From Botryllus schlosseri (lineage: Eukaryota), in NCBI GenBank assembly GCA_051294905.1, contig CM119372.1, forward strand, positions 24,182,001 to 24,246,000: a DNA stretch of 64,000 nt. The letters are read 5' to 3'. The notes beneath the pieces were generated by a model that was not told where the DNA came from, searched no databases, and saw nothing but the letters and a program-made list of their open reading frames with translations. Shown here piece by piece: positions 17,084 to 61,782 of the stretch (its first letter is position 1; every line of letters begins with the position of its first letter). The position numbers and the translations under genes are program-made.

Positions 17084-17311
17084 CTGTAAAATAAAATTCA
17101 ACACGTCTCGCACCGTGTTTTCGCACGATAACAATCAAAAGCCTCGACTATGGAATACGTGGCGAGAAAGAACAAATTGCCGGAAGGACGCAGAATAGTG
17201 ACGCGCGATGAGGTTCATTGTTGGTGAGGCACTGGCTCCTTTAGGGTCAGATTTACAGATATACGAGGAGGCTACGTAAGAAGGTACTACGGTACTAGGA
17301 TAGGGGTACAG

Positions 17312-17969
17312 TAGGGCTCTTCAAAAATGACTTTTTTTCTCAAATCGTAGTGGCTACTTGATAAAATTGTTAGGTTACCTAATTTAAGCCTACCCACCAA
17401 ATTTGGTTCAATTCCAACCAGTAGCCGCATTGCTACAGAAGAAGAAAGTTTCCATATATTATATAAAAATAAATAACAAAAAATTTGAAAATTTTCTGTT
17501 CACGCCATGAAAGTGTTATGTTGTCTATAGAAACGATGTTCACCAAATTTGGTTGAATTCCAACCAGTGGAAGCGGAGTTATTGCCGTCGAAAATTTGGA
17601 TTTCAATAAAATAGTATTTACGGTACTATAATAAATAATTAAAGAATGGGTCACCGTAAATACTATTTTATTCATATTCCAAATTTTTCGACGGCACTAA
17701 CTCCGCTTCCACTGGTTGGAATTCAACCAAATTTGGTGAACATCGTTTCTATAAACAACCTAACACTTTCATGGGGTGAACAGAAACTTTTCAATCTTTT
17801 TGCTATTTATTTTTACATAATAAATAGAAACTTTCTTCTCGTGTAGCAATGCGGATACTAGTTGGAATTGAACCAAATGTGGTGTGTAAGCTTAAATTAG
17901 GTAACCTAACAATTTTATCAAGTAGCCAGTACGATTTGAGAAAAAAAAAGTCATTTTTGAAGACCCCTA
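17312..17969. mobile_element. Foldback MITE (nearly whole element is palindromic)
   Basis: Arms of about 310 bp, TAGGGCTCTTCAAAAATGAC / GTCATTTTTGAAGACCCCTA; TSD GGGTACAG vs GTGTACAG (7/8). Confidence 0.9.
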
Positions 17970-36964: not shown

Positions 36965-38176
36965 CGCTGATATTGTCTTCATGAAAAAATATGTCAATAT
37001 CGAAAGCCTGGTATAGAAAAGTTATCACGGATTAGTAAGCGATATGTAGGCTAACATAAGCGAAATATGGAACATATGATATTTAACGTTCCTGAACTTT
37101 CAGCAACATGGATCCTTTTGTCTTGACGTGACGAATCTGCGATCGAGTAATAACGTCGAGATACCACACTTCATATCATTTTCTCCAGACTTGCACAAAC
37201 TACTGAATTTTCAAAATACGCAACTAGAACTAGAACTACCCAATATAACTTACAACCATTACTATAACTAGAAATACCTAATTTTTAAAATCGGCAACTA
37301 GTACTAGAACTTCCCAATTTTTATAATCCGCAAGTAGAATTAGAACTAGAACTACTCACTATTCAAAACCCGCAACTAGAACTAGAACTAACGACCATTA
37401 AAAATCCGCAACTAAAACACAACTATGTTTCACCTTGACCTATGCTTCCGAGTGCACAATGTAAGTAATGTATTAAACCTGTACTTAATGTGTAATATGG
37501 TAGACTTTTGTTTTTGACCTTCACTGTACTTTTGTTTTTGTGACGGACTGGAAATTAGATATTCCCCGAAAGATTATAGAGTAACGTATAGGGCAGGCCT
37601 GGGCAATGGGCCCGCGGGCCAAATATAGACGGCGAGAAGTTGCTTAAAGAATTTTGAATTATACATTTATCGGATTGTGACTATCGCATTGTACATTGTG
37701 AGTGTCTTGTCCAGATGAAAATATAATCAGACAAATATTACGATTATTACATTCGAATATGTACTAAACACATGGGCTGTATATATAAATTGAACCGGAA
37801 TGGCGTTTACTTTGAAGGCTGATTAGTGTTTATTTGTTCACCGTGGTTACGTAGCCCAAGTTCGTCGTATGCGTAATCTCTATCCAAAATAAAGTTGATA
37901 TAACATGGGTTAATTCAAGCGGAGATTATGACATAAGCTCGCCGTCACTCGGCTGAGTCTGCGGGAAGACGAATTAGGAAAACATGCCAGCGACACTACC
38001 GAAACAACAGGACGGTTTTACCAAGCTATACACCGCTCGGGATAGTGATCAAGCTGTAAGATCCCATACATTTTCATGTCGTAATAGAAGGTAGCGCGGA
38101 GCGGATCGACAAATCCTCTGGTCCTACTCCGATCCTGTTTTTTAAGCTCTGGTCTGCCTCCGGTCCGACTCCTAGG

Positions 38177-38694
38177 TAGGGCTGGGCACAATGATTCGAG
38201 TACTCGAATCTGAATCGAGTAATAATTTTAATGATTCGAGTCGAGTAGTAAAAGACGATTTTTTCGAGTACGGAAATTATAAGCTCCTCGCAACTGTAAG
38301 TTAATTTACTAACGAATATTATAGTTTTTATACTACGTTCCACTGAGGAAGCCTTGAGACCTTGATGTGCCGTGTTGCAGCATAAGAGACACTGTACAAA
38401 GTTACGATTGTTACTGGAAATAACACATTTCCAAAGTCATGATCATTCCAAAACATTGTCAAATAAGTGCAATGAAATTGGTATATGGTTGAAAAAATAC
38501 CACATTATCTTTAGCGTGACAGATAACAGGCATTATATTCTTTGTGGTGGCATAAAACGTACATATTTGAACTTTGGCATGATACATTATGTTGTGATGT
38601 CATAATGAGTGATACTCGATTACTCGACTCGACTCGAAGCGTAAAACGTGATTCAGAATCGAATCACCCAGGCACTCGATTTTGCCCAGCCCTA
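38177..38694. mobile_element. Young hAT-type MITE, copy 1
   Basis: TIRs TAGGGCTGGGCA / TGCCCAGCCCTA; perfect TSD CTCCTAGG; near-identical inverted copy at 61265-61782. Confidence 0.95.
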
Positions 38695-41600
38695 CTCCTA
38701 GGCCGGATTCCAGAAATGAACGCGATCCGGTCCGAAAAATTTCAATAATAATTATCTACTAACAGGATGGTTTTGAATATTGATTGATACAATGCAAACA
38801 GGAAATTAAAAACTCAAAGGTCAGACCCAACCTATATCTGAAGTAATTATGCCAACTTGGTCTATTTTCATGAACGTTTCAGTTTACCTATTGATTCGAG
38901 GGTGGAAGTGGGTAATTCTGTCATATTCTTAGTCAAAAGTACTGACCTGTCTCCGATCCGACTCCGGCCGTATCCAAAAGGGTACTGATCTGGCTCCGAA
39001 CCGGCTCCGACACAAATGAGGAGTATTTCGATATTTATATAAAATTTATTAGATTTTTGTGAGTTAATTCAGGTCAAAATGTCGCAACGTAAACACTTAT
39101 TCTCTAATAAACCTGACAATCGAAGTATAAAGCAGTTCTTGTCTGGTAAACCGGAAACACGTACTGCTGCTCTAATCCTGAACCTGAAAAATTTGTTCTG
39201 TGATTGTGCACTGCCAGTTGCCTAGTAAATAATTAGTTTAAGCAAAGATGTTTTTTTTGTATTTAAATGAAACACTTGCGGTCTCTTAAATCTACTTAGC
39301 AGTCACTCAAACCAAACCCTAAAAAACCTGCATGAAAGTATTGTGTTTCGTGGAGTTAGCCTTCAAGTAGGGTTGATAGCTTTTCCATGAATAATTATCT
39401 GCTCCGATAAAATCTTATTGATTTTAATTCCCACTGTTTCGTGATGTAGATTCATCAAGTGCAAATTTTCTCATCTGGCTGGAAATCTGGACGATCGATA
39501 GCCAACACTTTCCTATGTCATTAACAATATAGACTTATAAACGAGTATGTTAACTACCATTGATGCTATCCATACAGTACAGTATGTATAGCGGGATGCT
39601 GACCAATTCACATTCAACAATGAGCTCCTCACACAATTATGTAACCCGATTTTCGTTGTTATTTGTAAACTCAAACGACTGATTGATAGGGCTTCATTCT
39701 TATACCAGCATAATTTCGCAGGCCGAGGATAAATGTGGTTAAATTGCCACTTAATCGCCGGCGGCGACAATAATCGAAGCTTGTTTTGGCTCGAGAACCG
39801 TATTGTATGTATGAATTCATTCGCAGGGCGCGATATAGTAAATTTAGGATGATAAGCCAAAACCGAACACATGCAGATAATAATAATATATTTAGAACAA
39901 ATCAAGTATTACTTGATGATGACATAGTCGCGTCATAAACATTCAACGAGTTCTATAAGCTGGTCATCCGCAATAACGAATTTGTAAAAATTAGGGATGA
40001 AAGGGGGTTGTGCCGTTACCTAGAACATGAAAAAAATCTGGTTATAGATTTGCTGATTGTGCCTGCTGACACCACCATAACCATGTCACTTTTAATTACA
40101 CTTCAGCTGATGTCTTTCTGTTTTACTATGTAAAACATGCTTTCTGCACGTTCTTTCGCGAAGACGAATGCAATTTACTGAAGTCTAAAATCATTTTAAT
40201 AATTCAGTTATTGCATGTAGCAGTTCGTAATTTGAAATCAGCAACGACTTTATTACATGACAAGTCATATATTTTACGTTACCTTCAACGCCCAATAGAA
40301 ATACTAATGTTTGCTCGATTGTTTATTGAAAGAAAAGCGTTTGTATTCAACTGTTCGCATTTTAGATTACTTTGGGTTGTGATGGAAGTTATGAATGAGT
40401 TATGCCTAACTGCACAGTGTACTTATAAAGGTGGAATCTACTTAACAGACGCATGGATCGCTGATTCCAAGTACACCACTGAAAGTAATAAGCGTGCTGG
40501 GGTTATCAATCTATAATTACATTCGCGATACGAAATAAGTCATTTCCATTTTGACTTTATGGAATGTCCAGGAACTACCTTTCAAAATGCGTGGGCCCCG
40601 AAGTCAGGTTATTGCACACGCAATAAAAAATATATAGTACTGTAGTATAATTTTAGTCAGGTCGATACAATAATTATATTTTCACTACACATTTAGTCGA
40701 TATCTTCAAAATTACATCTTGATGTTATCGTGAGCCACTGAAATGTTATCCGCCTGTCACCCGCGCGGACCGTAGTTTGCTCACACCTGGTCTAAAGCAT
40801 AACCCCTTGAGTATAAGTACTATGGGTTGGCAAACCCTATCGAAGTATACACTGATAAAGGCAGGAGTAATTCGTTACCGATCAACTTGCGTCATCAATT
40901 TCTTCAGTAACAGAAAATCAGTGACCAATCGCGACGTTGCGAAATAAATGAACAGCATGCAACATATGAGCAGGGCATGAATAAGCTACGATGTCTGACA
41001 ATTTGATTCAATTAAAGTAGATGTATAGAGATTTCCAGTTAAGTAAAAATTTAGCCCATATCCCGCTCTTTGATAATAAGGACTAATGATATTCGTTTTA
41101 TTTCGATAATATCCAACATGTGGGTTCATGTCGAACGGTAATATTTAGAACTCAAGTATCGCTTAGTGGGGAACTTTACAAATTTTTCGATATATTTAGA
41201 TATGTTTTGGTCGCGATAAATCACACACATCATAAAAAAGGGCATCGTACAATTCAGATTAAATTGCTACCTTTCGTCCAGGCCGTTATAAAAGTAGTAA
41301 AACATTGGAAATTTCTATTCAAGTAGCGATTTCCGGGCGAGCAAAAAGTAAGTATTGCGGGCCGAGTTTGTCTAAAAACTGAAAAGGCAGTCTAAATACA
41401 TAATCGATCCTCAGTGCCCTGGAATGTCCTCATATATAGATGAGAGCATACACCCAGCTGGTAAAATCAACTCTCCGAATGATAGTCAAGACGCTCTTGG
41501 AAAGAAGATAAACGTTTATTTGACACCTTCCGAATAGCGAGATCGAATATCCCTGAAAAAATGAATAATAGTCATGGTACCGATCCACACATTGTTGTAC

Positions 41601-42137
41601 GTAATATTTTATTTGACACTGACCAGTGATTATTTGGAATTGGGTAGACAAGAAGTCGCAATATCGTCGATGCGCCGGGTGCAATGATTCGAGTAATCTG
41701 ACTCGACTGTATTTGTTGTAATGATTCGAGTCAGTAGTAAAATTTTATTTATTCGAGTAATGAAATTACAGTAGGAGTTATATTACGGATAAGAAATTTG
41801 GTTTCGATACTCTCTTTACCACAAAATAGCTGTGAAATATGGATCCGTTGTAACACGAAATTCAAAACACGTACACACACACACCATTTCCCTGGAATGT
41901 TAATTAATCCGGAACATTTTCATAAATAGAGAAGCTCGAAGAAATATACAAATATAATTAACGTGGTATGTATTATGGAACTGGAAACATCTTCTTCGTG
42001 TTGACCAGAGATTATGTTCTAATTCGTAATTTCAAGCGTATCATCAGTCCCTCGAAAAACAAGCAAATATTTGGATACCAATTTCAAGATAGCTTAGATC
42101 TTTGACTGAGTTCTGACTCGCTGTTATCTCACAAACC

Positions 42138-42973
42138 ATGGAATTGTTACGGGTATCACCTTCGCTCAATGAAGAAATGGATGAAATTACATCCGGAGCA
42201 TATACTTTGGCCAGGAATTTTATCATGTACAAACTCGACGGGCCAAGCGTCAAGACAAATACCGAGGCGGAGAGGACGTTACGGCGAATTGCGGATGAAA
42301 TGTTCGAGCAACATCGAACTCTCTTAAACGCACTCTCTAAACGTCTCCGTTACAGTGACGGTGAAATCGATGAAAAATATGAAGAATATTCACCCGATGA
42401 GCGGATGTTCTTGATCATAGCTGATGAAATTTCGAAAGATAACCAAGAAAATTGGGGTCGGATTGTCTCTCTCTTTGTGCTCGGTAGCATTCTTGCTCGC
42501 AAAAACGAGGATGAGCGACACGGCGAGCATATAGAAGGTATCATACGATCAGTCGGGAATTGCATTGGTAGTAGAAAACGAAAGTGGATATAGGATAATG
42601 GAGGATGGGTAAGCGATTCTACATGCCTTGCTTTGGATTTAGGGATTATCATTTAGCACGAGGCACAGTGAATCTTCTCTATAGAGCCTCCATCATCTCT
42701 CGATAATGAAACTCATCTTCCGGCATCCCATTTGATTATGAATTTACATTTACCATAGGCCGCTACAATTTAGATTTCCAGCGCTCCGAAATTGGAATTG
42801 CCCGGCAAGTACGGTAATTTTATTCTGCAAGATCATGAAGGCATATACTTTTGTTTCAGGACAGTTTTGTAGGATTTTTTGATAACGCAGCTTTCGGTGA
42901 CAGTAAAGTTTGGAAGGGCCACATATTTGCTGGAATTAGACTGAAGTTCATTGTATTGGCACTAACAAGATAA
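42138..42973 (+). pseudogene. Bcl-2-family (MCL1-like) gene copy A, two exons (42138-42608, 42860-42973), premature TAG at codon 152
   Basis: BH3 LRRIADEM, BH1 NWGRIVSLF, BH2 WI*DNGGW|DSFVGFF with the intron after GGW typical of the family; TAG at 42591-42593 where copy B has GAG. Confidence 0.9.
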
Positions 42974-43649
42974 TAGATAGGCTATTCATTTATTATCGGC
43001 CCACCTCATGGAATATTTTAAATATTACAATTTTGCGTCGTATAATTACATCTATTCTGCTGTAGGACGGATGTATGGTCTTCTGAGATTACTTGAAATA
43101 TAGCCCCGTATAAAAACCGTCTTTATCTGAGAACGTTTGCATTTTTCAAAATTCTCCAGCTACGTCAGAGAATTGTTAGGTTACCTAGAAAAAGCTGCAG
43201 GTCAAAGTTGATCCGCTTCCGACCAGTATCGATAAGTGGTTATGACAGCTTAAAACTATCCAACTTACAACGCCAAATTTGATCAGTTCTCCACGACCAA
43301 ATATCGTTTTCTACAATTATGGTGTATATGGAACAAATGTAAATGTGGCTATGTTGTTGCTAGTAACGAGAATACGTCGCTCAGTAACTAATTTTTCGGC
43401 GATTCTGAACCTCTATACATACCAGTGAGCAAAGTTACATGAACCTGCGTTAACTTGTGGTGTTATGTACCTACCTACAATGTTATCAGACAGTAGCGAT
43501 CAAGACAAGTATTATGAAGTTAAGGAATAAGGACGCCATATTCTCACCTACAGATACATATTTGTTTGGAAAACATCGTGTTACGTGGCGAGTGTAATTG
43601 TTTCCTTAATGTTGTCTTATAGTCTCGACCATTCAAGTGCGCGCTAGAT

Positions 43650-44015
43650 CAGTTTGAGTTGGCGATATTCGAGATGATATCTCGCGAAGCTCTGCATGGA
43701 ATTCATGCATTGCTCGTCGATTCTTGTTCAATCGCTGTCGCTGAGGTTGATTGCGTTTAGCTGTTCCGGTCATTGAATAATTGAACATTAGGCGGTTCAT
43801 TTCAATTTCAAAAAACACCATTTGAACTACATTGCATTATTGGGATCCATGAGATAGCAGAAAGACATTACTGTAGCGCATCGATTCCCCATCTCTTCGC
43901 AGAGATTCCTGATCTGCACGGGAAGCATCTTGCAACTACTCAGATTGCATTATGCCACGCTAGACTTGTACAATATTTCGGTTACTGTTTTGTAGCAGGA
44001 GAAAATGCCATGATT
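43650..44015 (-). pseudogene. Remnant (last one and a half exons) of the duplicated LRR pseudogene in the left arm
   Basis: Reverse complement of about 49055-49420. Confidence 0.75.
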
Positions 44016-44291
44016 AGTTTTTGATTTTGTAAGTCCTAAATTAATAGAAATTATTATTCAAAAAGTTCAAACTTCAGTTCTGACTTTATGAGATTAAATA
44101 TAATTACTTCGTCGAAATGGTGGTATGGTGCTTGTAATAACGAATGTCTTTTTTCACAACAAGCTAGTTAATTAAGTCAATGACACAAGCTAATTAATTA
44201 ATTTTGTACAGGATTGCAAGATACAAAGATAATTGTTAGATTCGACAGCGGTAAAACAATTGTATTTGAATGTTATTTATTACTATATAAG

Positions 44292-46018
44292 CAGGGTTGC
44301 CATCGCCATGGACCCAAAAATAAGGACGGTCGAAAAATTAGATTAGCATTAAAAAGCGTTTTTGTACGTACTTGGTTTGTATTTATACGAACTGCGGCAT
44401 ATTACATTCAATTCATCTTATTGCTAATAATTTCGTCATTTTAATTCACCACATGACTGCGATACAATGAACAATAAGAAGGTATCGGACCGACTTGGAT
44501 TAGTCTTCGAAAGCAGACCCCCACCTGGCCTAGGCGATGTAAAAAGGAGGCATGCACACTGAATGAAAAGCAAAAGAAGCTAATATAAAAGTACAGGAGA
44601 CAAAAAAGTGGCATGTGTCGGAAGACGAGATCGATATGTCAGGTCGTAATCCGGTAAACTAGAGGGATGACAGGGGTTCATTCTGCATAAATTGTTTGTA
44701 TTTCGACTTGAATGTGGACATGTCATGCTCGATGACTGTCGGATAGCCGGCGAGATATTGTTTCAAAAATTGTGTCTGGCATATTTGATAGCGCGAGGAT
44801 GGTCTTTTTTGTCCACCATATGGTAGTTGGACGACGTGGACGCGCGCGCGCGTGTCGTGCATTTTTGATACCGAGATAAAGTTATTGAAGTTTTCGGGGC
44901 AGTAGCACTGATACATAAACTTGGCTATTTCTAGTTTCCACATATCTTTTATGTTTAGGACACCGAATCTTTTGAGCAGTGATTTGCTGGACACATCATC
45001 CCGGTCCCGTTGGGGCCCTGGTTATGATACGGAGAACCTGATGCTGTGATTTTTTCCGTGGCTCCAGTGCGCTAACACTGGCAGCCTCCACAAACAGATG
45101 ATGCCATATTGTTACTTTGTTTGGAATACTTTTTTCCAGAAACAAATCTGCTCTAGCGACTACTTGTTATTAGAAAGTGCTTCATGGATCTCAACACAGC
45201 TGAGGTCAATAGGTTAATTTTACTGGTAGCTGGGACTTGACTGTCATTTCGATCTTACGTCCATTTTGACAGGCTTGCCGAGCGCTAAATTTAATAAAAT
45301 GGTTATCAATGGAAAGCTGCACTCATTACGAAAAGATGCATTTTATTCTGCTCAGGGCCCTGGAACCCCCCAACCTTAAAAAAAGAAGTCTCGAGTTTTG
45401 CATTCGGATGGAGTTTGGCTTTGTCACGTAACTATGTAGTCTGGCTCTTTCTCTTGAGCTGCACTCTCCTTTTCCCAGACAGAATTGTTGTGTCACAATG
45501 GAAAATTCGAGGATGATTTTTGGGGTTCCGGGGCCATGAACAGAGTAATATTTATATTTTCGTAGTCAGTACACCAGCAGCTTTCCATTATTACCCATTT
45601 TATTAAAGTTAGCGCTCGGTAAGCCGGTCAAGAATGGCCGTCAAATTGCCTTTGGCCAAATAAAAAGTATGATATAAACCCAAATACAGTAATTTTCAAT
45701 CTCGCTGTGTCTATATACCGTTTAGGACACTATGATCTGACCACTTAGAAGTCAAATCCTGTGGTGTGTAAACGCCGGGAGTTCTTTTCATTTCTGATAA
45801 CATAAAATCTCGACGTAAAATCATTATTTTAGAATATTATGCAACACAGATACAACAGGAAAACGATCGAAGTTCTGCAGTTGTTAAAAATAAGACAAAA
45901 TAAGAACACAAGTCGAAAATAAGGACATTTCTTAGAAATAAGGACAGTTGAGTTTTTTAAGACATGGCCTTTCAAAATAAGGACAAATCTTAGAAATAAG
46001 GACGGTATGGCAACCCTG
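44292..46018. mobile_element. Composite hAT-type element private to the left arm
   Basis: TIRs CAGGGTTGCCAT / ATGGCAACCCTG, AAATAAGGAC subterminal repeats, perfect TSD TATATAAG (44284-44291, 46019-46026); empty site in the right arm at about 46508-46515. Confidence 0.93.
44450..45110 (-). mobile_element. Decayed 3' fragment of the CR1/L2-like LINE family found at 57281-58455
   Basis: KSLLKRFGVLNIKDMWKLEIAKFMYQ and MSTFKSKYKQ are shared with the 57527-58471 ORF; shared 3' UTR (GGCCTAGGCGATGTAAA..GCATGCACACTGAATGAAA). Confidence 0.85.
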
Positions 46019-47100
46019 TATATAAGTATTGGTATGGCTTTGTGACGATGTAAATAGTTGTGTCGTACGACATCTGTTTCGTATCGTCGCGCTTCGTACG
46101 CCGATAAGGAATACCTGGCTCATCCGACTTGTGTCTATTTGTCATAAACTATAGTTTAGATATTGTAAGTTTTAAGGTTGTAAGATGTAGTAAGCAGGAC
46201 GATGAGTATTTCACGTATTCTGTGAGTTGTATGACCATATAAAGTTTCCGAAGACATGCTCCGAATAAGGCTAGGAGTTTTACATGTAATAATTACATAA
46301 TACTGAAGCCGGTTACAGGATAATTAGGCTAAATTTTATCCATAACTTTAGAGGTCCGCTCTAGCAAAAAAGGAGAATGCGAAGACAATAAAGAGACAAA
46401 TCTGAGGATGCCGCCCACCCCCTCTGGGTTGGGAGTAAGTAAAAAGGATGAGGTGGGGGGCGGGCGGCATCCTCAGATTGTCTCTTTATTGTCTTCGCAT
46501 AGTAATACTTATATAGTAATAAATAACATTCAAATACAATTGTTTTACCGCTGTCGAATCTAACAATTAGCTTTGTATCTTACAATCCTGTACAAAATTA
46601 ATTAATTAGCTTGTGTTATTGACTTAATTAACTAGCTTGTTGTGGAAAAAGACATTCGTTATTACAAGCACCATACCACCACTTCGACGAAGTAATTATA
46701 ATTAATCTCATAAAGTCAGAACTGAAGTTTGAACTTTTTGAATAATAATTTCTATTAATTTAGGACTTACAAAATCAAAAACTAATATAGTTTTAAATCG
46801 TGGATAAATTCTATGTTACCTAGTGTAATTGGGATAACTCGATATTCTAATAGCGCGAAAACTGTATAATGGTTGACTATACTCTGCAAACAACCCTGAT
46901 TCAGTCATATGTTATTGGCATATACGTAATGGAGCAGTCCCAGCTTGAGTAATGAGTATATATGTCCCGTATTATTACTTTATCAGATGGGTTGAAATAT
47001 TGAAATGGCCCAACACGAAAATCGCATTGGTGCTTTGATTAGAGTGATCGTTAATTCTATTTTCTGATCACAAATTTATGACAATCCACATATCTTGAAG

Positions 47101-49430
47101 GTGATAAGACGATGAACCATCAATCAATACTTATGGATCAGTATGAAGTTGAAATTGCTTCTGGGGTCTGTCATCAAACTACGAATGAATTGGATGTAAA
47201 GAATATCGTGAATGATGGTCTCATAGAGAAATCCCACAGCTACGAGTGGGAATTCCGCCAATGCCATCTCAATGAAAACCTTGTAAAGATGCTATTGGAC
47301 AAAATTCGTGGATTCGAATTTTCGGTAAACAAATTTACACATTCCGCTCACAGTCACTGATAGTTTTAAATCCACGTTTAATTTAGGCATGTTATCCGTA
47401 AGACCCGGCTTTTGAAAAAAAAAACTGTCATCATCATCACATTGTTTCACATTGATAATGTGATTATGCATGAATTGAAGGTATCGTACCGAACAATGCT
47501 CAATTGTCCACCGGTGCAGCTATTTAACGCAATAGCCGTGCTAAACTAGTTAGAGTTGATTAGTTGTTAATTTTAGTTATTAATACCTCATTTCTGTTTT
47601 ATGCGACAAAATTTGGCATTCGTACAGAATCAAATAAAAAAGGCAGCGTCACAGATCACGATGGCATTGACAAACTCCTGCCAATCTTCTGCGAGTTGAT
47701 GAATGTATGTGCCTCGACGAAACTCAATCTGGAAGGAAGTAGCGGATCAGACGATTTACTCGTCGTTTTGAGTCAACTTATCCGGCAGCATCAGGTATTG
47801 GCGATGTTTAAAATAGGCACTAATCTTATAACACCTTTCGAAATGAGATTTCCTAATACCTCATTCCCATAGGTGAAATTGCAAAAACTCGATCTCAGCT
47901 ACAATCAAAACATTGACTTAACGCAACTCGTAACTATTATTTCAAACGATACAACCTATTTGTCACTTGTGAACTCGCACTTGCAGCCAAAAGATTTCGT
48001 TGCAATGCACGTCAAAAACAGGTAGGTGAGGGTCTTGTCTTGAGCGTTTGTTGTTGGAGAGTTGTCAATAGTCACACTATCTTTGAGTGGTTGAATAGAG
48101 TTCACTTGAGACGAATGACGGAAATTCTATTTTAATCCTAGAGCATTTCACTTATCTATTATGGCGTCACTGACTAACCAACATTTCTCTGTTGTTGGCT
48201 CGTAATGTTTGTCTTGATTTCTGATCAATTCTACTTGCAAATTGTCAGTTGCTCCGTATTCGTTTAGCTCCAACATCTCGACATCCATCTACAATCATCT
48301 GGATGAAGAGTGCATAGCAGCGCTGGTAGCCTTCTTTTGTAAAGACAATCCGGTTGCTCTTGTGAGAAAGGGATGCGACCTGACATCCGAGGAAATTAGC
48401 GCTTCTGATAGATTAGGTGATATCGGGGTAGCCACTCGTTTCCACAGTTTTGTGTGTCTTTTTGAAATAATTTACTGGATTTTTCAGGTTGAAAACCTCG
48501 ATCTGAGTTACAATACGGATTTCGAACCGGAAGGATTGGAAGAAAGCCGACGCTTCACAAGAAAGCATAACACGAAAAAAGTTCGGCTTTCAGCTTGCGA
48601 ATTGGATGAAGACTCTTAATCTCGTTGAAATGGTCTAGAAAATCACGAGGTAATTATTTCGACCTAGAACTGTTTTGTTTTCTTACAACCAAAATAATCA
48701 CGCATAGCGTAATACTAATGTGGAACTTTATCATAGTCAAGCATGGAATTTCATTTAGCGACCGAATTTATCATCAGTAAAGTATTTCTGATCACGTATG
48801 CTGGTAGAGAGGAACAATAATGCGTATAACCAAGAGATTTTGGGACGCGCATTCGTTTTTTTGGTAATTTCCGCGTTTCTTCAATATCCTATCGACCTTC
48901 CTTGTTTTTTTGTGTTACACCAGTTTTGCGATTAGGTGCAGAAATGGAAAAATATTATTATTACTTATCTATTACACCCGTCGAGTGGTGTGTAGTTCGT
49001 AAAATATATGAACGTCACACCCTGTTTTAGCTGTAATCGCTGGATTTTAGTAGAAATCATGGCATTTTCTCCTGCTACAAAACAGTAACGGAAATATTGT
49101 ACAAGTCTAGCGTGGCATAATTCAATCTGAGTAGTTGCAAGATGCTTCCCGTGCAAATCAGGAATCTCTGCGAAGAGATGGGGCATCGATGCGCTACAGT
49201 AAAGTCTTTCTGCTATCTCATGGATCCCAATAATGCAATGTAGTTCAAATTCGGTTTTTTGAAATTGAACTGAACCACCTAATATTCAATTATTCAATGA
49301 CCTGAACAGCTAAACGCAATCAACCTCAGCGACAGCGATTGAACAAGAATCGACGAGCAATGCATGAATTCCATGCAGATCTTCGCGAGATATCATCTCC
49401 AATATCGCCAACTCAAACTGATCTAGCGCG
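47101..49430 (+). pseudogene. Multi-exon leucine-rich-repeat pseudogene (RNI-like/NLR-type LRR exons)
   Basis: Exons starting after AG at 47873 (VKLQKLDLSYN), 48268 (LQHLDI, frameshift, YNHL), 48488 (VENLDLSYN), 49031 (L*SLDFSRN) and 49310 (LNAINLSDS); in-frame stops at 48617, 48626, 49034 and 49340. Confidence 0.8.
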
Positions 49431-50096
49431 CACTTGAATGGTGGAGACTGTAAGACCACATTAAGGAAACAATTACACTCGGCCCGCAACACGATGTTTT
49501 CCAAACAAATATGTATCTGTAGGCGAGAATATGGCGTCCTTATTCCTTCACTTCATAATACTTGTCTTGATCGCTACGGTCTGATAACATTGTAGGTAGG
49601 TACATAACACCACAAGTTAACGCAGGTTGCTGTAACTTTGCTCACTGGTATGTATAGAGGTTCAGAATCGCTGAGAAATTAGTTACTGAGCGATGTATTA
49701 TCGTTACTAGCAACAACATAGCCACATTTACATTTGTTCCATATACACCATAATTGTAGAAAACGATTTCTGGTCTTGGAGAACTGATCAAATTTGACGT
49801 TGTAAGTTGGATAGCTTTAAGCTCTCATAACCACTCATCGATACTGGTCGGAAGCGGATCAACTTTGACCTGCAGCTTTTTCTAGGTAACCTAACAATTC
49901 CCTGACGAAGCTGGAGAAATTTGAAAAATGCAAACGTTGTCAGATAAAGACGGTTTTCATACGGGGCTATATTTCAAGCAATCTCAGAAGACAATACATC
50001 CGTCCTACAGCAGAATAGATGTAATTAAACGACGCAAAATTGTAATATTGAAAATATTCCATGAGGTAGGCCTATAATAAATGAATAGCCTATCCA

Positions 50097-50931
50097 TTAT
50101 CTTGTTAGTGCCAGTACAATGAACGTCAGTCCAATTCCAGCAAATATGAGGCCCTTCCAAACTTTACTGTCACCGAAAGCTGCGTTATCAAAAAATCCTA
50201 CAAATCTGTCCTGAAAAAAAAGTATATGCCTTCAGGATCTTGCAGAATAAAATTACCGTACTTGCCGGGCAATTCGAAGTTCGGAACGCTGGAAATGGAA
50301 ATTGTAGCGGCTTATGGTAAATGTAAATTCATAATCAAATGGGATGCCGGAAATGAGTTTCATTATCGAGAGATGATGGAGGCTCTGGAGAGAAGATTCA
50401 CAGTGCCTCGTGCTAAATGATAATCTTTAAATCCAAAGCAAGGTATGTAGAATCGCTTACCCATCCTCCATTTTCCTCTATCCACTTTCGTTTTCTAGTA
50501 CCAATGTAATTCCCGACTGATCGTATGATACCTTCTATATGCTCGCCGTGACGCTCATCCTCGATTTTGCGAGCAAGAATGCTACCGAGCACAAAGAGAG
50601 AGACAATCTGACCCCAATTTTCTCGGTTATCTTTCGAAATTTCATCAGCTATGATCAAGAACATCCGCTCATCGGGTGAATATTCTTCATATTTTTCATC
50701 GATTTTAACGTGACTGTAACGGAGACGTTTAGAAAGTGCCTTTAAGACAGTTCGATGTTACTCGAACATTTCATCCGCAATTCGCCGTAACGTCCTCTCC
50801 GCCTCGGTATTTGTCTTGACGCTTGGCCCGTCGAGTTTGTACATGATAAAATTCCTGGCCAAAGAATATGCTCCGGATGTAATTTCATCCTTTTCTTCAG
50901 TGAGCGAAGGTGATACCCGTAATAATTCCAT
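50097..50931 (-). pseudogene. Bcl-2-family (MCL1-like) gene copy B, two exons (50461-50931, 50097-50210), premature TAA at codon 58
   Basis: Same structure as copy A; TAA at 50760-50758 where copy A has CAA; BH1 NWGQ; intact BH2 WIEENGGW|DRFVGFF and hydrophobic tail GLIFAGIGLTFIVLAL. Confidence 0.9.
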
Positions 50932-52835
50932 GGTTTGTGAGATAACAGCGAATCAGAGCTTAGTCAGAGATCTATGCTATCTTGAAATTGGTATCCAAAT
51001 ATTTGCTTGTTTTTCGAGGGACTGATGATACGCTTGAAATTACGAATTAGAACATAATCTCAGGTCAACACGAAGAAGATGTTTCCAGTTCCATAATACA
51101 TACCACATTAATGATATTTGTATATTTCTTCGACCTTCTCTATTTATGAAAATGTTCCGGATTAATTAATATTCCATGGAAATGGTGTGTGTATGTACGT
51201 GTTTTGAATTTCGTGTTACAGCGGATCCATATTTCACAGCTTTTTTGTGGGAAAGAGAGTCTCGAAACCAAATTTCTTATCCGTACTATAACTCCTACTG
51301 TAATTTCATTACTCGAATAAATAAAATTTTACTACTGACTCGAATCATTACAACAAATATAGTCAATTCGGATTACTCGAATCATTGCACCCGGCGCATC
51401 GACGATATTGCGACTTCTTGTCTACCCAATTCCAAATAATCACGGGTCAGTGTCGAAGAAAATTTTACGTACAACAATGTGTGGATCGGTACCATGACTA
51501 TTAGTCATTTTTTCAGGGATATTCGATCTCGCTATTCGGAAGGTGTCAGATAAACGTTTATTTTCTTTCCAAGAGCGTCTTGACTATCTTTCGGAGAGTT
51601 GATTTTACCAGCTGGGTGTATACTCTCATCTATATATGAGGATATTCCAGGGCACTGAGGATCGATTATGTATTTAGACTGCCTTTTCAGTTTTTAGACA
51701 AACTCGGCCCGCAACACTTACTTTTTAGTCGCCCGGAAATCGCTACTTCTTGTACTTGAATAGAAATTTGCTATGTTTTACTACTTTTACAACGGCCTGG
51801 ACAAAAGGTAGCAATTTAATCTGAATTGTACGATGCCTTTTTTATGATGCTGTGTGATTTATCTTGACCAAAAAATATCTAAATATATCGAAAAATTTGT
51901 AAAGTTCCACTAAGCGATACTTGAGTTCTAAATATTACCGCTCGACATGAGCCCACATGTTGGATATTATCGAAATAAAACGAATATCATTAGTCCTTAT
52001 TATCAAAGAGCGGGATATGGGCTAAATTTTTACGTAACTGAAAATCTCTATACATCTACTATAATTGAATCAAATTGTCAGACATCGTAGCTTATTCATG
52101 CCCTGCTCATGTTGCATGCTGTTCATTTATTTCGCAACGTCGCGAATGGTCACCGATTTTCTGTTACTGAAGAAATTGATGACGAAAGTTGATCGGTAAC
52201 GAATTACTCCTGCCTTTATCAGTGTATACTTTGATGGGGTTTGCCAACCCATAGTACTTATACTCAAGGGGTTATGCTTTAGAGCAGGTGTGAGCAAACT
52301 ACGGTCCGCGCGGGTGACAGGCGGATAACATTTCAGCGGCTCACGATAACATCAAGATGTAATTTTGAAGATATTGAGTAAATGTGTTGTGAAAATATAA
52401 TTGTTGCCTCGACTTGACTAAACTTATACTACAGTACTATATATTTTTATTGCGTGTGCAATAACCTGACTTCGGGGCCCACGCATTTTGAAAGGTAGTT
52501 CCTGGACATTCCATAAAGTTAAAATGGAAATGACTTATTTCGTATCGCGCTTATTACTTTCAGTGGTGTACTTGGAATCAGCGATCCATGCGTCTGTTAA
52601 GTAGATTCCACCTCTATTGGTACACTGTGCAGCTAGGCATAACTCATTCATAACTGGCGTCACAACCCAAAGTAATTTAAAATGCGAACAATTGAATATA
52701 AACGCTTTTCTTTCAATAAACAATCGAGCAAACATCAGTATTTCTATTGGGCGTTAAAGGTAACGTAGAATATATGACTTGTCAATGTAATAAAGTCGCT
52801 GCTGATTTCATATTACGAACTGCTACATGAAATAA

Positions 52836-54444
52836 CAGATGTGGTCAAAGTAGTCAAGAAAGCTACTCAAGTAGAAGTAGAAGTAGTGACGAAAAAATCT
52901 ACTCAAGTACGAGTAGAAGTACTTCTTCAATAAGCAACCTAAAACTACTTGAAGTAGAAGTAGAATTTACTGACTATTAAAGTACTCAAGTAAGTAAGTA
53001 GTTGTGAAAACGATCCTAATTCGTTCACATGGATTGTAAAAAAGGTGCAAATTGAGCTATGCGAAAGGTGACGAGCTTGATTCATATTGACGCATACCAG
53101 CAGGTATCCAATTTTCGAAAGCATAAGCATTCGTCGACATCACAGGATGAAAATTTTAGTATTATTATGGAGATGCGATACTTATCCTCTGTTTTCTCGA
53201 ACAACACGTTTTAGAAAATAGCATGGTATGGCATCATCCCAATCAGCAGGGGATTACGATAAGCGCCCTGCACGCAGGCGAACCGCGTTCGATTCCCGTC
53301 GGAGGTTTATCTGGGCTCCTCTTCCCCTGCCGTTGCCGTTCTTACGGCGACAAAAAAGCCCAGAAAAAGACCTGACGAAAGAAAGCACTCACAATGAATG
53401 GAAAAGAACTAGTAGAAAGGGCCGCGGCTTCAAAGAGATCAACATCGAAAAAGAACTGTGACATCGGGCACTCTAGGCCGAGGTGGATGTTAGAGTAAAG
53501 GATCGCTACTGATGCGTGTCGTTCTACATCCTCCTATCTGTTCATGACATCGCATTGTGTCTTATCGCATTGTACATTGTGTGTGACTTGTTCAGATAAA
53601 AATATAACCCAACCATGTTATGTTATGTTATTATAAGGTCCGTAGTTTAGTCGAAGAGCAATACGGAGAAGTTGAATAGGATACGGTTTGAACACTTTGC
53701 GCGATTAGTAAACGCTAATAAAAAAATGGGGGACCGTAATAATGCAATGTTGTGTAGCTTTATTTCTGGAAATTAAAGGCATTACTACACCTGCTTTTAT
53801 ACTTCAACATGTATTTTATCCAGACAAAAGAACTGATAATAATTATAACTCAGAAAGACCCAGAAAGTTTCAAAGGCAGAATGCTAAACAGCACTAAAAC
53901 TAACAAAAAAGTCAGAGTCCGCTTTTTCAGGTTAGGACGTGCCACGGACATGGTAGATTACGATATGACAAGTAAATGATAGATTGCGAAACATCAGTTT
54001 CAAACGATATGATGAGCCATATATACTGTGATGAATTATTTCATATGGGTGAAGAGCCACACGGTGGTGTGAACGGAATCACGCCAACCCGCTACCTAAA
54101 TTATATTCATCGATACTTTCGTCAAATCATACTGGTAACTCTGTATCCACTGCACGCGAAGCGCGACGAAAATTCTGGGCTATACTCAACTTTTATGAAA
54201 ATTAAATGTTGATGCTCCGAAAAACACCCCCGAAATTCCTCAGGCTATCTTTCTGATTGGAAGATTGAACTACTTCTACTTGACAAACTGAAAATAGCGA
54301 AAAGTAAGTAAGTAGATCACATATTATTACGAAGTATAGGTAGAAGTAGCGAAAATCAGATCTACTTGAGTAAGTACCAGAAGTAGAGGAAAACTACTTG
54401 AGTACTTCGAAAAAGTAGAAGTACTTCGTTACTGACCACCTCTG
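52836..54444. mobile_element. hAT-type element (AGTAGA-rich family) private to the right arm
   Basis: CAGATGTGGTCA / TGACCACCTCTG; perfect TSD TGAAATAA (52828-52835, 54445-54452); empty site in the left arm at about 40208-40215. Confidence 0.93.
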
Positions 54445-57280
54445 TGAAATAACCGAATTATTAAAATGATTTTAGACTTCAGTAAATTGCGTTCGTCTTC
54501 GCGAAAGAACGTGCAGAAAGCATGTTTTACATAGAAAAACAGAAAGACATATTAGCATTAAAGGTGACATGGTTATGATATCAGCAGGCACTATCAGCAA
54601 ATCTATAACCAGATTTTCGTCTTGTTCTAAGAAACGGCACAACCCCCTTTCATCCCTAATTTTTACAAATTCGATATTGCGGATGACCAGCTTATAAAAC
54701 TCGTTGATAGTTTATGACGCGAGTACGTCATCTAGCAATACTTGATTTGTTCTAAATATATATATATGTGTTATTTCCATGTCTTCGGTCTTGGCTTATC
54801 ATCCTGAATTGACTATATCGCGCCCTGCGAATGGATTCATCTATACAATACGGTTCTCGAGTCAAAACAAGCTTCGATTATTGTCGCCGCAGGCGATTAA
54901 GTAGCAATCTAACCACATTTATCCTTGGCCTGCGAAATTATGCTGGTATAAGAATGAAGCCCTATAAATCAGTCGTTTGAGTTTACAAATAACAACGAAA
55001 ATCGGATTACATAATTGTGTGAGGAGCTCATTGTTGAATGTGAATTGGTCAGCATCCCGCTATACATACTGTACTGTATGGATAGCATCAATGGTATTTG
55101 AATATACTCGTTTACAAGTCTATATTGTTAATGACATATGGAAAGTGTTGGCTATCTATCGTCCAGATTTATAGATTCGATTTAGTGTTCATCTCTCGAT
55201 ACAAGAATGGAATCCGCGGATGCGACTTTCGAAACATCCATCGGGTCCCAATTTTGCAAGAGAGTCATAGTTATTCCCGCATCGACCAAGCGGTCTTATT
55301 TGATCGAAGCGACCAGTGAACGGAAGTTAAACTAATATGTATTTGTTGTTTGTACATGTACGTTAGGGCTGTTTCAAAAATAACTTTTTTCACGGATTCC
55401 AGCAATTCACTGTTTAAATGGTCAGGTTGCCCTAAAAATGCTTCACACCAAATTTGGTTCAATTTTAAGAAGTATAAGACCCCGCAGATCCTATTAAAAT
55501 GTTTAATTCATTAGGCAAAATTTGAAACAAATTAATTCAAATTTTTTGTCAACCCCATGAAATTGTTAAGCTGTTTTCAAAGACAATGCAAAACAAATTT
55601 GACTCAATTCCAACTAGTAGAAACGAAATTATTTGAGTTTTTCGTCGATAATTCTCGGATTGTCTACACGGCCAGATTGAATGTGTTAACCGTGATCGCA
55701 GTGTTGGATGGCAATCGCTCGCTGGCTCAGTTCCAAGCACAAGCAACAACAACAGAAAGGGTGAATTTGAGCAAACAAGTTCTCAATACGATGCACAAAG
55801 ATATCGTTGATGTACTTCTGTTTTCATGCTCGAATAAATGCATACATAGGCTACACAGAAGAAGATGTTTTGATCGCGTCAGTACTAGAAATGGTTAGAA
55901 TCTGCTATGAATGAGTCAATGAGTTGTATCGTGTTCGAGCCTTTGATAAAGATGCCATGATATTATAGCCTCAGGTATTTCATTTCTCTGTTAATAACAT
56001 AGCTTCATTGCTCAGTGTCGTCTACTATTATTGATGTGTGATTTGAAAGGATATCACAGGTGTTTCGTTGTTTAATTCAACAAAATCATATATGACAGAC
56101 TTATAATAAAACAACATCAGATCGAGTTTAGTATGTAATCAAATCAATTTTAGGTATATATACTCAATTAAATACGTTCGGAACAGGCTGGAACTATAGT
56201 AAAGTGGTATCTTTTGTGTTTCGATATGAGTGGTCCCTGGTTCAAATCACGGTAAATGTAACTTTTAGGAGGCGCGGCGTGGCAATAATGTGATGACGTA
56301 GCACGATTTGATTGGTGCCATATTTCAAGCACTATATACTACTGTCCTTCGTTCGTTTTACTACAGGATGCGTGATTATGGGGAAACAAAAGCGATGCAT
56401 ACAGTAACAATCGACAATGAGCACATATAGCGGTGGTTCTTAACCTTTTTAGGCCGTGACCCAAATCTGAGTTTAGTGGCATCTCGCGAGCCAAGCGTCA
56501 CACATCAAAAAAAAATCCATTTTAATATTAGTAAACTGCGTTTTTACGGGCATGACTTAGAACGCGCAGACGACAGCTGTACGCAACGCAGTTCTATGAA
56601 ACATTTCTGCCTCACGCTATTCCAAAATGCAGTGCATTTTGAACCCGGCAAAGAAGGACACTGTTTCAAAATCTTTAGACTTACAAACTGGAGCAAAATC
56701 CGGAAAGAAACGTATGTTTTTTCCGACTTTGTGGTTGGTTGACAAAAAAACACGAATTTCTTATATAGTGTCATTTATGTGTTTTTTTACTTGAATCTCT
56801 CCAGTATCTTAGCTTTAAGAGCTGTAGAGGTGGAAGAATTGCCAAAAAGGAGGACATTTTCAAAAACCCGAAGAAATAGGACAAATCATCCTAACGGATG
56901 TATAGTAGCCCTGCTATTTGTACTACTGATACTCGGATTTAAAGGGCGGAACTGTGCCAATAGCTTAGGTCATTTTCGCCACATATCTTGTTGGCACTGC
57001 ACTTTGCCCACCCGTATATGTTGTCCAAAACTGGATGTGTTCATGTGCTTCGGTGCGGAATGGGTTAGCCTCAAAATACGTAGGTTTCATAGTCCCGCAC
57101 CCGCTTGTTGCACACCCCTTCGCTAAAGCATCCCTACGGCCAGGGCATGGTATGGTATGGTATGGAACGCGAATTTTACATACTCCATACTTGCCTTACT
57201 CTCTCCATACCATACTTGCAATTTTCCATACCATACCAACATTGTTCCATACCATACTTTCCATACATTCCATACTTTCA

Positions 57281-58455
57281 ATCATCATCATCATTATTGG
57301 TTTATTAGCAATTTTATCAGTTCAATACACCACAAAAAAATGCGATACAATGAAAAGACAGGAAGGTGTCGAAGCGACAAGGAGCAGTCTATGGAATCTG
57401 ACACCCACCTTGGCCTAGGCGATGTAAAGAGGAGGCATGCACACTGAATGAAAGTAAAGAAGATAGTATAGAAAAAGAAAGCGACAATAAATAGGGCGGC
57501 ATGTCATGGGAAGCGAGATCGATAGGTCAGTCGTGGTCCGGTAATCTTGAGGATGGACTGTATTTATTTAGTAGTAATTGCTTGTATTTCGACTTGAATG
57601 TGGACATGCTCGTCGACTGTCGGAAGGCCGGCGGGATACTGTTCCACACATCAGGTCCGGCATATTTGATAGAGCGATGATCTTTTCGGTCGATCATATG
57701 ATATTTGGACGACGTGGACGCGCGTGTGTTGTACTTGTGCGCTTTTGATTTCGAGGTAAAGAAGTCATTGAAATATTCGGGGCAACGACCGCAGTGGAAC
57801 TGATACATAAACTTGGCGATTTCTAGTTTCCGCATATCTTCTATGTTTAGGACGCCGAATCTCTTCAGCAGCGACTTGTTGGATGGGCAGCCAGGCCCCT
57901 TTGGGGCCCTAGCTATGATTCGGAGTACTTTATGTTGTAGTTTTTGCAGTGGCTTGAGTGCAGTTTTACTGGCAGCCCCCCAACAGAGGATGCCATAGTG
58001 TAACTTCGATTGGATTAAGGATTTAAAGAGTATCAGAAGAACCCATGCTGGCATGAAGCGCCTAAGGCTGTAGAACAGGCCGCACTTCGGTGATAATTTA
58101 GTTTCTAGGGACTGAATATGACTCTTCCAGGACATGTTCGAGTCCAGTAAAACCCCGAGATATTTGGCATTATCTGTGTTGGAAACGGGCTGACCAGCGA
58201 TATTAACGGTTAGGTTATTTTTTGAATTTACTGTCAGCAATTGCGATTTCGAGGCGTTTATGCAGAGGTTGTTCTGGGCCGTCCACTCATGGACTTTGGG
58301 CATTTGGTCACCAGTCAGGGCATCCAGCTCTGCCGTCGAAGATGCTGAAGAGAGGAGGTGAGTATCATCAGCGAAAAGTGTGGTGTTCAATGAAGAGGTT
58401 TCAAAAATGTCGTTGACATTTAAGGTGAAAAGGACCGGTCCAAGTACTGAGTCCA
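57281..58455 (-). mobile_element. 5'-truncated CR1/L2-like LINE (open reverse transcriptase C-terminal frame of about 300 aa)
   Basis: SVLGPVLF..VNDI, LFADDT, INASKS and KYLGVLLDSNMSW motifs; stop at 57527; (GAT)n tail near 57281-57295. Confidence 0.92.
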
Positions 58456-58691
58456 AGTACTTCAATATCATAAGTATAGTACCTTTTATAGCACCTATAT
58501 TATTGATATTTCAGATGTCATTATTGCTTAAACTAGCGAATCTAATGCGAATCTAAGTACTGGTAATAGTTTTACAGAGTCTGTTTTGGTGAGGTTTAGT
58601 TCACGGTGGTGAGGTGCCGTGTACCTCTACTCTACAGCTTCCGCGAGCAAAATGAGATTGTGAGTAGATTGTTATCTAGTACTGTCCATAA

Positions 58692-59248: not shown

Positions 59249-61264
59249 CTCCATGCATATCATCTCATTTCCGGTACATTGGCATGAGGCACATACAAGT
59301 TTGAAGTAAACTCGCAAAATAATTTATAGTATAGGCGCACCCATAAAATATCCCAGCTGCAGGCAATCTGCAGCGATCTGCATGATTGTTAGTACAGTAT
59401 TTGGTCGGGGTTAGCGTGGCGAGAATTCCAAACTTACATCTACCCCACTCCCTGATCTATAATCCTAATGCGAGATCGAGCATTTAGTTCGTAGCGTCAT
59501 GATTGCTTGTAAGCTGTCGTCACTCAAGGAATGAGGTAGTTGGAGTAGCCTACATTACCAATTATTGCGTCACATGACAGACTCTACTCGGAGACGTCGT
59601 GTCTCTCTCAACTCGAGAGAATATCGGATCAACTTTACTGCTGTCATTATTACATCACAAAATCATGTCATTCCAAGTGCTCCTAAAACCATTGCACAAG
59701 CGTGTATTTGTTCCTACACAGCTTTCAATAGTTCACGTTCACACATAACAAAAGCGATCGACGATCGTATTCCGTGAACAACGAACAACGTACGCTTCAT
59801 GAAGCTTGCACAGATCACGATAAAATGTATAAAGCACCAATGTATGGAAGTATGGAAATGTCGTTCCATACCATAGATTAAAATCTTCCATTCCATACCA
59901 TACTTGCATTGTTCCATATTCCATACCAAAATATCGATCCATACCATACCATACTTCCATACCATACCATACCATACCATGCCCTGCCTACGGCCTCCGA
60001 CGGTGTTTTGCAGAGAAACCATTGTTGGATAAATCTTATCATGAATTCAAACCAATTTGTGTTATACAAAGGTCGACACACTTTCATGATCAGCCGATAT
60101 TGTAGTAAGGAATTTATCACATGAGATCACAAATTCGACAACAGGGGTTAATAGGTCAGGCATGCAGGACTAAGAGGCTATAATTAGTGAGTGAAATGTT
60201 GCGATTGTGATAGGATTCGATGAGAAACGAACGATGAAAATCATATCTTGATCAGCTGAGGAGAAAATGGTCTACGGTTTCGGGGATATTGCAATTATTA
60301 CAGATTGGGGTGTCTGAACATCTCATTTTAAATAAATGAGCATCAAGCCGTCAGTGACTGGAGCGCATACGGAGCATTATGACATCAAATTGCCGATATT
60401 CATGAATTGACGTGAATTTGTTGCTATGAAACCATGAAACGGTTTTTAACGAGCCCCTTTATCTTCACGTGCAAACAGTTCCTGACAGACAGTCCGCGAA
60501 TACTGGCGGATAAATGACTTCCCTTCTCCGATGGACAACTTAGGAATCTGACGATTTTGGACAGACGAGGTCCCAAATTTTTGCTTTTTGATGTCGTGGA
60601 CCCCTTTGGTGGAAATATGAGCCAAAATCCCTCCTAGGAAAAATCAGCCCGATGATTAAAAATTGTCATTTTATTCCGTGCAAACACCTCTTGACTGAAC
60701 AATAAGACGAGCGCTACAGACTGTTTGTTTCAAGCTGGGACGTAACAACACTTTGTCGTTCTTGCACCAATCGCTGTGAAAACCAGTGTGCATAAATTTA
60801 CTGACTTTTTAAATTTCATGTATGGATTTGGTCAATGATATTGGCACTTCCATTTATTGCTAGAGCTGATGGAAAGGGTGTCTTCGAAAATTTAGCACGC
60901 CCATGCCACACAGTCATGAATAAAAATGAAGTTTCGGGTGGGTCCATATTAATTTGTGGAAGCATGTTGTTTTTTCGTGACCTTTGGTAAAGATTGGCGC
61001 TAGTCGAATCGAAAGATTACCAATTTGTTTTCCTTGACTAGGTGATGTGTCTTCCTCTTCGGGTCGCATTTGTACCGCGGGGCTTAGATTTCATGGGCAG
61101 GACTATTTGTTGCCGTCATTTCGGAGCCGCACAGTCATATCTACATCGACGGTTTCGGTAAACATGTGTCGGTCGTTATGGATTCTAGATGTTAGCACCG
61201 TCGATCTTTCCGGGAGCATACTTCGCAGAGTCACAGGTCTCGCGAAGCGTTTATATGTCGCGAT

Positions 61265-61782
61265 TAGGGCTGGGCAAAATCGAGTACCTGGGTGATTCGA
61301 TTCTGAATCACGTTTTACGCTTCGAGTCGAGTCGAGTAATCGAGTATCACTCATTATGACATCACAACATAATGTATCATGCCAAAGTTCAAATATGTAC
61401 GTTTTATGCCACCACAAAGAATATAATGCCTGTTATCTGTCACGCTAAAGATAATGTGGTATTTTTTCAACCATATACCAATTTCATTGCACTTATTTGA
61501 CAATGTTTTGGAATGATCATGACTTTGGAAATGTGTTATTTCCAGTAACAATCGTAACTTTGTACAGTGTCTCTTATGCTGCAACACGGCACATCAAGGT
61601 CTCAAGGCTTCCTCAGTGAAACGTAGTATAAAAACTATAATATTCGTTAGTAAATTAACTTACAGTTGCGAGGAGCTTATAATTTCCGTACTCGAAAAAA
61701 TCGTCTTTTACTACTCGACTCGAATCATTAAAATTAATACTCGATTCAGATTCGAGTACTCGAATCATTGTGCCCAGCCCTA
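61265..61782. mobile_element. Young hAT-type MITE, copy 2 (inverted relative to 38177-38694)
   Basis: Same TIRs as copy 1; perfect TSD GTCGCGAT (61257-61264, 61783-61790). Confidence 0.95.

Follow-up and report, generated by a model that had tools for sequence, protein, structure and literature searches.

In the genome of the colonial ascidian Botryllus schlosseri, a 64,000-nucleotide stretch (assembly GCA_051294905.1, contig CM119372.1, positions 24,182,001 to 24,246,000; hereafter the window, numbered from its first letter) contains a palindrome spanning 15,688 bp, and the data presented below show that it is a real inverted duplication. Each arm bears one two-exon Bcl-2-family gene directed toward the centre, and neither of the two has been maintained as a working gene. 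Taken alone, this single locus is a dead, decayed duplication, and it has no present function. As to its origin, we lean slightly towards a palindromic mobile element that carries genes and exists in many copies, the locus being an old copy that was dead on arrival; the unit would consist of an arm, a 473-bp loop and a second arm, each arm with the Bcl-2-family gene and a facing, already dead gene of the leucine-rich repeat (LRR) type.

Comparison of the window with itself yielded three inverted blocks within 39483-55170 (identity 91-98%, E=0), the pairing stopping exactly at 46030 and 46504 to leave a 473-bp spacer. This upholds the coordinates given for the palindrome and its spacer by an earlier, sequence-only reading. 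That reading also had the arms aligning throughout with small indels, and this proved incorrect: the paired sequence comprises 4,743 alignment columns, which amounts to some 4.75 kb in each arm and about 60% of the span, a block of 2,271 bp is present in the right arm only, and in all 5.6 kb of unpaired DNA breaks up the arms. In the main block, perfect pairing is at most 104 bp long. The arms differ by 210 substitutions (4.43%; Kimura two-parameter distance, 4.6%). From the outer to the inner block, the divergence falls from 5.8% through 4.3% to 2.2% (chi-square p 0.037), which hints only weakly at conversion close to the loop and is not relied on here. With both hAT insertions described below removed and the deleted block restored to the left arm, so that each arm includes it, the length of the unit comes to 14,573 bp (about 14.6 kb). 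The arms and the spacer are arranged as follows.

39483-44291: left arm, main part, pairing with 55170-46508 save two right-only blocks
46019-46030: second copy of a target duplication, with the final 4 paired bases of the left arm
46031-46503: central spacer, 473 bp, without a recognisable gene
46377-46500: short hairpin with a stem of about 45 bp, at the right edge of the spacer and off the axis of the large palindrome
46504-55170: right arm, 7,050 bp minus its hAT insertion

Folding of the hairpin region gave a z of -8.4, which refers to the entire folded stretch of 502 nt. Across the window, neither Rfam (at gathering scores) nor ARAGORN gave a match.

The unpaired DNA resolves into an insertion private to each arm and a block found in the right arm alone; in addition, both arms contain the remnant of a miniature inverted-repeat transposable element (MITE).

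44292-46018: left-only hAT-type non-autonomous insertion, 1,727 bp, with a decayed 3' fragment of a long interspersed nuclear element (LINE) inside
52836-54444: right-only hAT-type non-autonomous insertion, 1,609 bp
46784-49054: right-only block, 2,271 bp, without a target duplication and with a 3-bp microhomology at its ends
39784-40795: remnant of an old hAT-type MITE, in both arms, aligned locally to a copy at 11648-12813

The left insertion is bounded by 12-bp perfect terminal repeats and by the 8-bp target duplication TATATAAG, and the right arm has this site once. In the right insertion, 11 of the 12 terminal bases pair and the target duplication is TGAAATAA (8 bp); the left arm has this site once, with one substitution. 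Thus, a private insertion in each arm with its empty site opposite, as the sequence-only reading had it, is borne out, and so is the conclusion that both insertions are younger than the inverted duplication, since the insertion site of each is single in the other arm. We take both to be of the hAT type by their ends alone, i.e., by the 8-bp duplications and short terminal inverted repeats of that superfamily. No hAT transposase frame was present in either insertion, as judged from the open reading frame translations and from a Pfam scan of 26 window frames (all 16 of at least 120 aa and 10 shorter ones), in which Bcl-2 and RVT_1 alone came above the cut-off; hence we call both non-autonomous. 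About 390 bp of the right insertion (53240-53628) is missing from other copies of its family and may be a piece resembling a short interspersed nuclear element (SINE). Such other copies lie at 7498-8771, 182-821 and 62692-62872, the first of them without the SINE-like piece.

As for the right-only block, it has no duplication, it has the 3-bp microhomology, and an exon-like frame crosses its right end into the shared arm; it was therefore lost from the left arm by deletion. A Helitron or hAT insertion was considered for this block and ruled out on the same three grounds. The mirror copy of the MITE remnant in the right arm is split by the insertion at 52836-54444, and the remnant itself came in before the arms diverged.

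An assembly artefact, in which two alleles are joined head to head via a common 473-bp piece, would also produce a palindrome, and the arm divergence of 4.4% is close to the allelic divergence of a polymorphic colonial ascidian (3.63%; PMC12448946). Two DNA runs (X1 and X5, as contigs) and two RNA runs (X21 and X19) were compared with 44293-57000 at 90% likeness. This interval extends from the left hAT insertion across the spacer and the whole right arm into the flank (1.8 kb), and at that likeness left-arm sequence maps to the right arm. X1 possibly represents the source sample, and X5 belongs to a different study. The contigs are graph paths, and 16 of 68,182 pieces, 15 of 702 joints and 40 of 936 variant sites were listed.

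In X1, a 682-bp contig runs from the left hAT end through the spacer into 176 bp of the right arm, its 21 hAT bases being too few to bridge that junction, and another contig bridges the right outer end. The X1 depths of the spacer (16.1), the right-only block (13.1 and 14.7) and the right flank (15.1) are equal, whereas two alleles should leave the block and the flank at half depth. The X1 arm contigs, at 20.7 and 23.3, compare with an expectation of about 19 if there are two full copies and of about 9.5 if there are two alleles. In X5, where the flank has a depth of 94.5 and the right-only block is present in two versions of 44 and 50, two arm contigs exceed the flank (132 and 137), though two others do not (55 and 89). 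This is the comparison of read depth on the arms and flanks that was suggested along with the sequence-only reading; the tool warns that depth does not equate to copy number. Moreover, among the listed variant sites, 18 of the 20 in paired positions show the left-arm base, the outer flanks are unrelated, and the window contains not a single N. Four left-type bases in the spacer-bridging contig were not read as conversion, as they may stem from bubble-popping. No single molecule across both arms was seen, and the left-arm junctions are not among the joints listed; both points, like the graph-path nature of the contigs, count for the artefact. Taken together, the bridging contigs, the equal depths of spacer, right-only block and flank, and the higher depth of the arms disfavour two divergent haplotypes joined in the assembly, which we consider improbable, and allow us to conclude that the inverted duplication is real.

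The two Bcl-2-family copies occupy corresponding places in the arms.

42138-42608, + strand: left copy, exon 1 (Pfam PF00452, E 3e-16), with a stop at 42591-42593 (codon 152, BH2 region)
42860-42973, + strand: left copy, exon 2 (membrane-anchor tail), with GT/AG sites and a resemblance to the C-terminal end of Styela clava XP_039252627
50461-50931, - strand: right copy, exon 1 (PF00452, E 7e-18), with a stop at 50758-50760 (codon 58)
50097-50210, - strand: right copy, exon 2

The PF00452 scores of 60.1 and 65.5 bits are well above the curated cut-off of 31.4. One premature stop in each copy closes the frame through BH2 and the membrane anchor. Over 194 codons, the left and right copies show 20 non-synonymous differences (including the two stops) and 4 synonymous ones, which gives a ratio of non-synonymous to synonymous divergence (pN/pS) of 1.39; the exon 2 tail differs by three non-synonymous changes. 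Neutral evolution of the pair was not rejected (p 0.80), and an omega of 0.3 was (p 0.0014). When polarised with five paralogues, 10 changes fell on the left copy and 8 on the right, 2 being unresolved. Neither copy has thus been maintained, and both decay neutrally.

The closest named relative is a bcl-2-like protein 2 of Styela clava (48% over 137 residues, the best of 58 matches among 1.84 billion representatives), and unnamed relatives reach 72-83% identity. On these matches alone, the animal would most probably be placed as a stolidobranch ascidian other than S. clava. Styela clava XP_039252627 has the BH1/BH2 region and the C-terminal tail in common with the locus copies, which differ by their premature stops. 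The best PDB matches were BCL2L10 and Mcl-1 (E 4e-7 to 2e-5), and by analogy the family members here may be anti-apoptotic. Within the window, no further Bcl-2 match was found. Searches for related loci gave none among metagenome or viral contigs when single queries were used, and none among viral contigs when an alignment was used; one distant locus (37% over 46 residues) came up besides.

The LRR pseudogene is convergent with the Bcl-2 gene in the arm.

46860-49450, + strand: LRR pseudogene of presumed NLR type, right copy, about seven exon-like blocks of about 140-170 nt, the first longer; bounds approximate
43620-44015, - strand: LRR pseudogene, left copy, last two exon-like blocks, the remainder deleted

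Its assignment to the NLR type is our assumption from the motif and the exon size. One LRR block fell into LRR clusters of the Atlas at 0.96, with a recognition of 2028, short of the tool threshold of 2300. The LRR blocks gave no Pfam match and no homologue in a search of longer proteins; the Pfam scan of window frames contained no NACHT match, and no further match to these blocks was found within the window. Stops in the final two LRR blocks are common to both arms, so that the LRR gene had died before the arms diverged. An X1 contig at 49393-49735, with a depth of 7.8 and 32 differences, is a diverged relative of the interval between the LRR and Bcl-2 genes.

Sequences like those of the arms appear to be abundant elsewhere. 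At position 50863, in the Bcl-2 exon, the summed contig depth exceeded that of single-copy contigs about 200-fold in X1 and about 380-fold in X5, and at the LRR site 47987 it did so 58-74-fold, although the tool warns that summed depth is not a copy number. These values suggest that the Bcl-2 relatives number from one to a few hundred. In X5, the excess extends to all 16 non-hAT bins examined between 46413 and 54892 (2.4-52 times the flank bin), non-coding bins included, and the loop hairpin reaches about 45 times.

The two RNA runs come from other individuals, include no small-RNA library and were covered to about 6 in 100 (X21) and 3 in 100 (X19). X21 reads were present in 2 of the 12 paired-arm bins, both over the Bcl-2 exon, and in X19 the depth was at most 0.55, in 6 of 12 bins. 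At position 50863, a base found in neither arm was carried by 22 of 22 X21 reads and 3 of 3 X19 reads. The reads over the Bcl-2 exon thus derive from relatives elsewhere, and it is these relatives, not the copies in the palindrome, that are transcribed. A listing of RNA data sets gave none for 46020-52830, which has no bearing on expression.

These data also bear on the idea of a maintained hairpin-RNA locus, a source of long double-stranded RNA or of small RNAs directed at the Bcl-2 family. Since the Bcl-2 promoters face each other, read-through would pair 4.75 kb at 95.6% identity, and the many Bcl-2 relatives are possible targets. No read-through of the palindrome was seen in the parts of X21 and X19 covered, which is weak evidence of silence. 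Reads are sparse in both runs, those of X21 on the Bcl-2 exon are of non-arm type, and A>G sites equal T>C sites (52 and 52; 47 and 47). The arms, besides, diverge neutrally and are cut by the unpaired DNA. The long double-stranded RNA that the sequence-only reading held possible is therefore not borne out, nor did the check for A-to-I editing proposed with it reveal an A>G excess in these two partly covered runs. A maintained hairpin-RNA function is in our view the least probable of the explanations considered, even below the assembly artefact.

The history envisaged for a palindromic mobile element, the origin we slightly prefer, is the following. Before the arms diverged, the old MITE was already in place and the LRR gene already had its stops. 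The unit may then have come in, or arisen, with two identical arms. Thereafter the arms drifted to 4.4%, neither Bcl-2 copy being under selection and each gaining its own stop; in whatever order, a hAT-type element entered each arm and 2,271 bp were deleted from the left one. Finally, at least one outer end may have been lost, which would be why no terminus or target duplication is visible. The homology of the arms ends where the shorter arm does, and therefore a single deletion on the outer side would be enough to conceal the duplication along with the partner end. After duplication of a host gene, one copy usually stays functional. We therefore count the neutrality of both Bcl-2 copies in favour of a dead element. 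In its favour we also count the excess of summed depth, which in X5 includes non-coding bins, the non-arm base of the RNA reads at 50863, the lack of further matches to Bcl-2 or the LRR blocks in the window, and the Bcl2 homologues reported for Adintovirus/Maverick-type elements.

A number of results weigh against such an element. All AGTAGT/ACTACT and AGAGAG/CTCTCT pairs with one motif before 39600 and the other beyond 55050 were examined (15 x 3 and 6 x 3 pairs); none of these pairs around the palindrome has a 6-bp duplication, and a MITE-internal pair alone has matching terminal sequence. No duplication of 5-9 bp was found within 15 bp of the arm ends, and beyond the arms the flanks have no homology in common save MITEs. 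The Pfam scan of the 26 frames revealed no polB, integrase or capsid frame, and no ATPase or protease either. Away from the exons, X1 shows little excess depth (10 of 16 bins are at 0.7-3 times the flank bin), and in this run the loop hairpin is single-copy. Furthermore, large host families of Bcl-2 and NLR genes could equally account for the exon depth and for the relaxed selection.

These points leave room for a one-off chromosomal fold-back, whereby a break near the loop is followed by priming on a short imperfect repeat and 7 kb of host DNA is copied in inverted orientation. The copied DNA would include one gene of a large Bcl-2 family together with the 3' portion of an NLR pseudogene, redundancy letting both copies decay. 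That inverted duplications arise through fold-back priming at short inverted repeats is well established (PMC10622511), and at the inner ends of our palindrome 8 of 10 bases pair across, while a short motif is present three times at the left outer end. A fold-back would account for the missing element ends and target duplication and for the old MITE common to both arms; the LRR gene, without an upstream NACHT part, starts near the loop as if it had been cut. As in the products described in PMC10622511, several kb are present in inverted copy on the two sides of a short single-copy spacer, and the inner ends show a short, imperfect repeat. Those products, in contrast, are one-off and identical-armed, whereas the locus has multi-copy content and outer junctions that are not tied to a parent locus. 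Also counting against a fold-back are the about equal death of the two Bcl-2 copies and the many close relatives in X5 of the non-coding parts and the loop hairpin. The fold-back duplication put forward in the sequence-only reading thus survives as an inverted duplication predating both hAT insertions, and the view of its origin shifts with the Bcl-2 and LRR pseudogenes and their many relatives. We regard a fold-back as a possible but clearly less probable origin than a mobile element.

Among known mobile elements, the closest comparison is with Maverick/Polinton elements (adintoviruses; PMC8097293, PMC8502044), which have a size range near 15 kb and mostly degraded, fossil genomic copies. Adintovirus/Maverick-type elements are reported to have Bcl2 homologues among their accessory genes (PMC8502044), and cargo-carrying Mavericks have been reported from nematodes (10.1101/2022.07.12.499685). 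Unlike in these elements, the palindrome contains no polB, integrase or capsid frame, no paired ends and no 6-bp duplication. Moreover, nearly its whole unit is an inverted repeat and its genes have introns, whereas in Maverick/Polinton the ends only are inverted repeats. The end motifs given for Mavericks are (AGT)2//(ACT)2 or (AG)3//(CT)3 (PMC8097293), and these ends and the 6-bp duplication were tested here and not found; the locus is thus not assigned to Maverick/Polinton.

The nearest thing to such an end is a single sequence in the right flank.

56260-56343, - strand: lone candidate Maverick-type end, its AGTAGT facing the palindrome, without a partner or a target duplication and at chance level (0.34 expected)

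This candidate is not established as part of an element, and an 18-base pattern derived from it had no match in the viral contigs. An AGTAGT at 36631 was tried as its partner and rejected, the alignment covering only 8 bases (3.7 such 8-mers are expected by chance); because the likeness stops after these 8 bases, 36631 and 56343 are not both ends of an element diverged by 4%. The adjoining 56190-56260 (+ strand), negative with both ARAGORN and Rfam, is what we take, from its likeness, to be a decayed tRNA-like stretch just inside the candidate end, and the AGTAGT at 56343 may be the tail of a SINE.

A bolder proposal, the chances of which seem to us evenly balanced, is that giant Maverick satellites, palindromic over their full length, form an apparently unpublished family by which an intron-containing Bcl-2 gene has been spread to hundreds of copies in an ascidian genome, and that the locus is a fossil representing its end state. 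Homogenisation of the arms would stop after integration, so that arm divergence would date insertions just as two long terminal repeats do, and the 4.4% would put the period over which the family and its Bcl-2 cargo have been mobile at about the time that ascidian alleles need to diverge. In the titles and abstract beginnings searched, a scope that leaves subscription literature mostly outside, no description of fully palindromic Maverick satellites with Bcl-2 cargo was found. The available text of a review of giant transposons lacks the string 'palindrom' (PMC6431247), and that of a colonial-ascidian genome paper describes much larger syntenic palindromes, with neither 'Polinton' nor 'Maverick' in its main text (PMC12448946).

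If the locus does belong to palindromic elements carrying Bcl-2, equalisation of their arms would be confined to copying and would not take place in the chromosome, and insertions could be dated from arm divergence. The cargo genes would die neutrally after insertion, so that working copies would be kept by selection on the element. In any case, counts of Bcl-2 genes and RNA mapping in this animal should be treated with caution, as both are inflated by many near-identical relatives.

Further repeats were noted in the window. The SINE-like part of the right insertion has an RNA depth above 6,000 in X21 at 53197-53620, which reflects a repeat transcribed elsewhere, most reads continuing into sequence unlike the window. 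RVT_1 fragments of LINEs lie at 28789-29646 and 57527-58510, the second having 76% likeness to the LINE fragment within the left hAT insertion. A 521-bp MITE is present at 38177-38697 and 61262-61782 in opposite orientation, its two copies being 99.2% identical and flanked by differing 8-bp duplications, which points to a young family; the pair was considered as an outer arm of the palindrome and rejected, as these are two insertions of one MITE with different duplications. At 17306-17975 there is a fully palindromic MITE of 670 bp (self-identity 89%), with a partial relative at about 55358-55633. A perfect 290-bp tandem duplication at 10071-10650, within a MITE with a relative at 33093-34082, is either very recent or an assembly slip. 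Finally, a tandem array of 36-42-bp units occupies 37198-37425, 2 kb left of the left arm.

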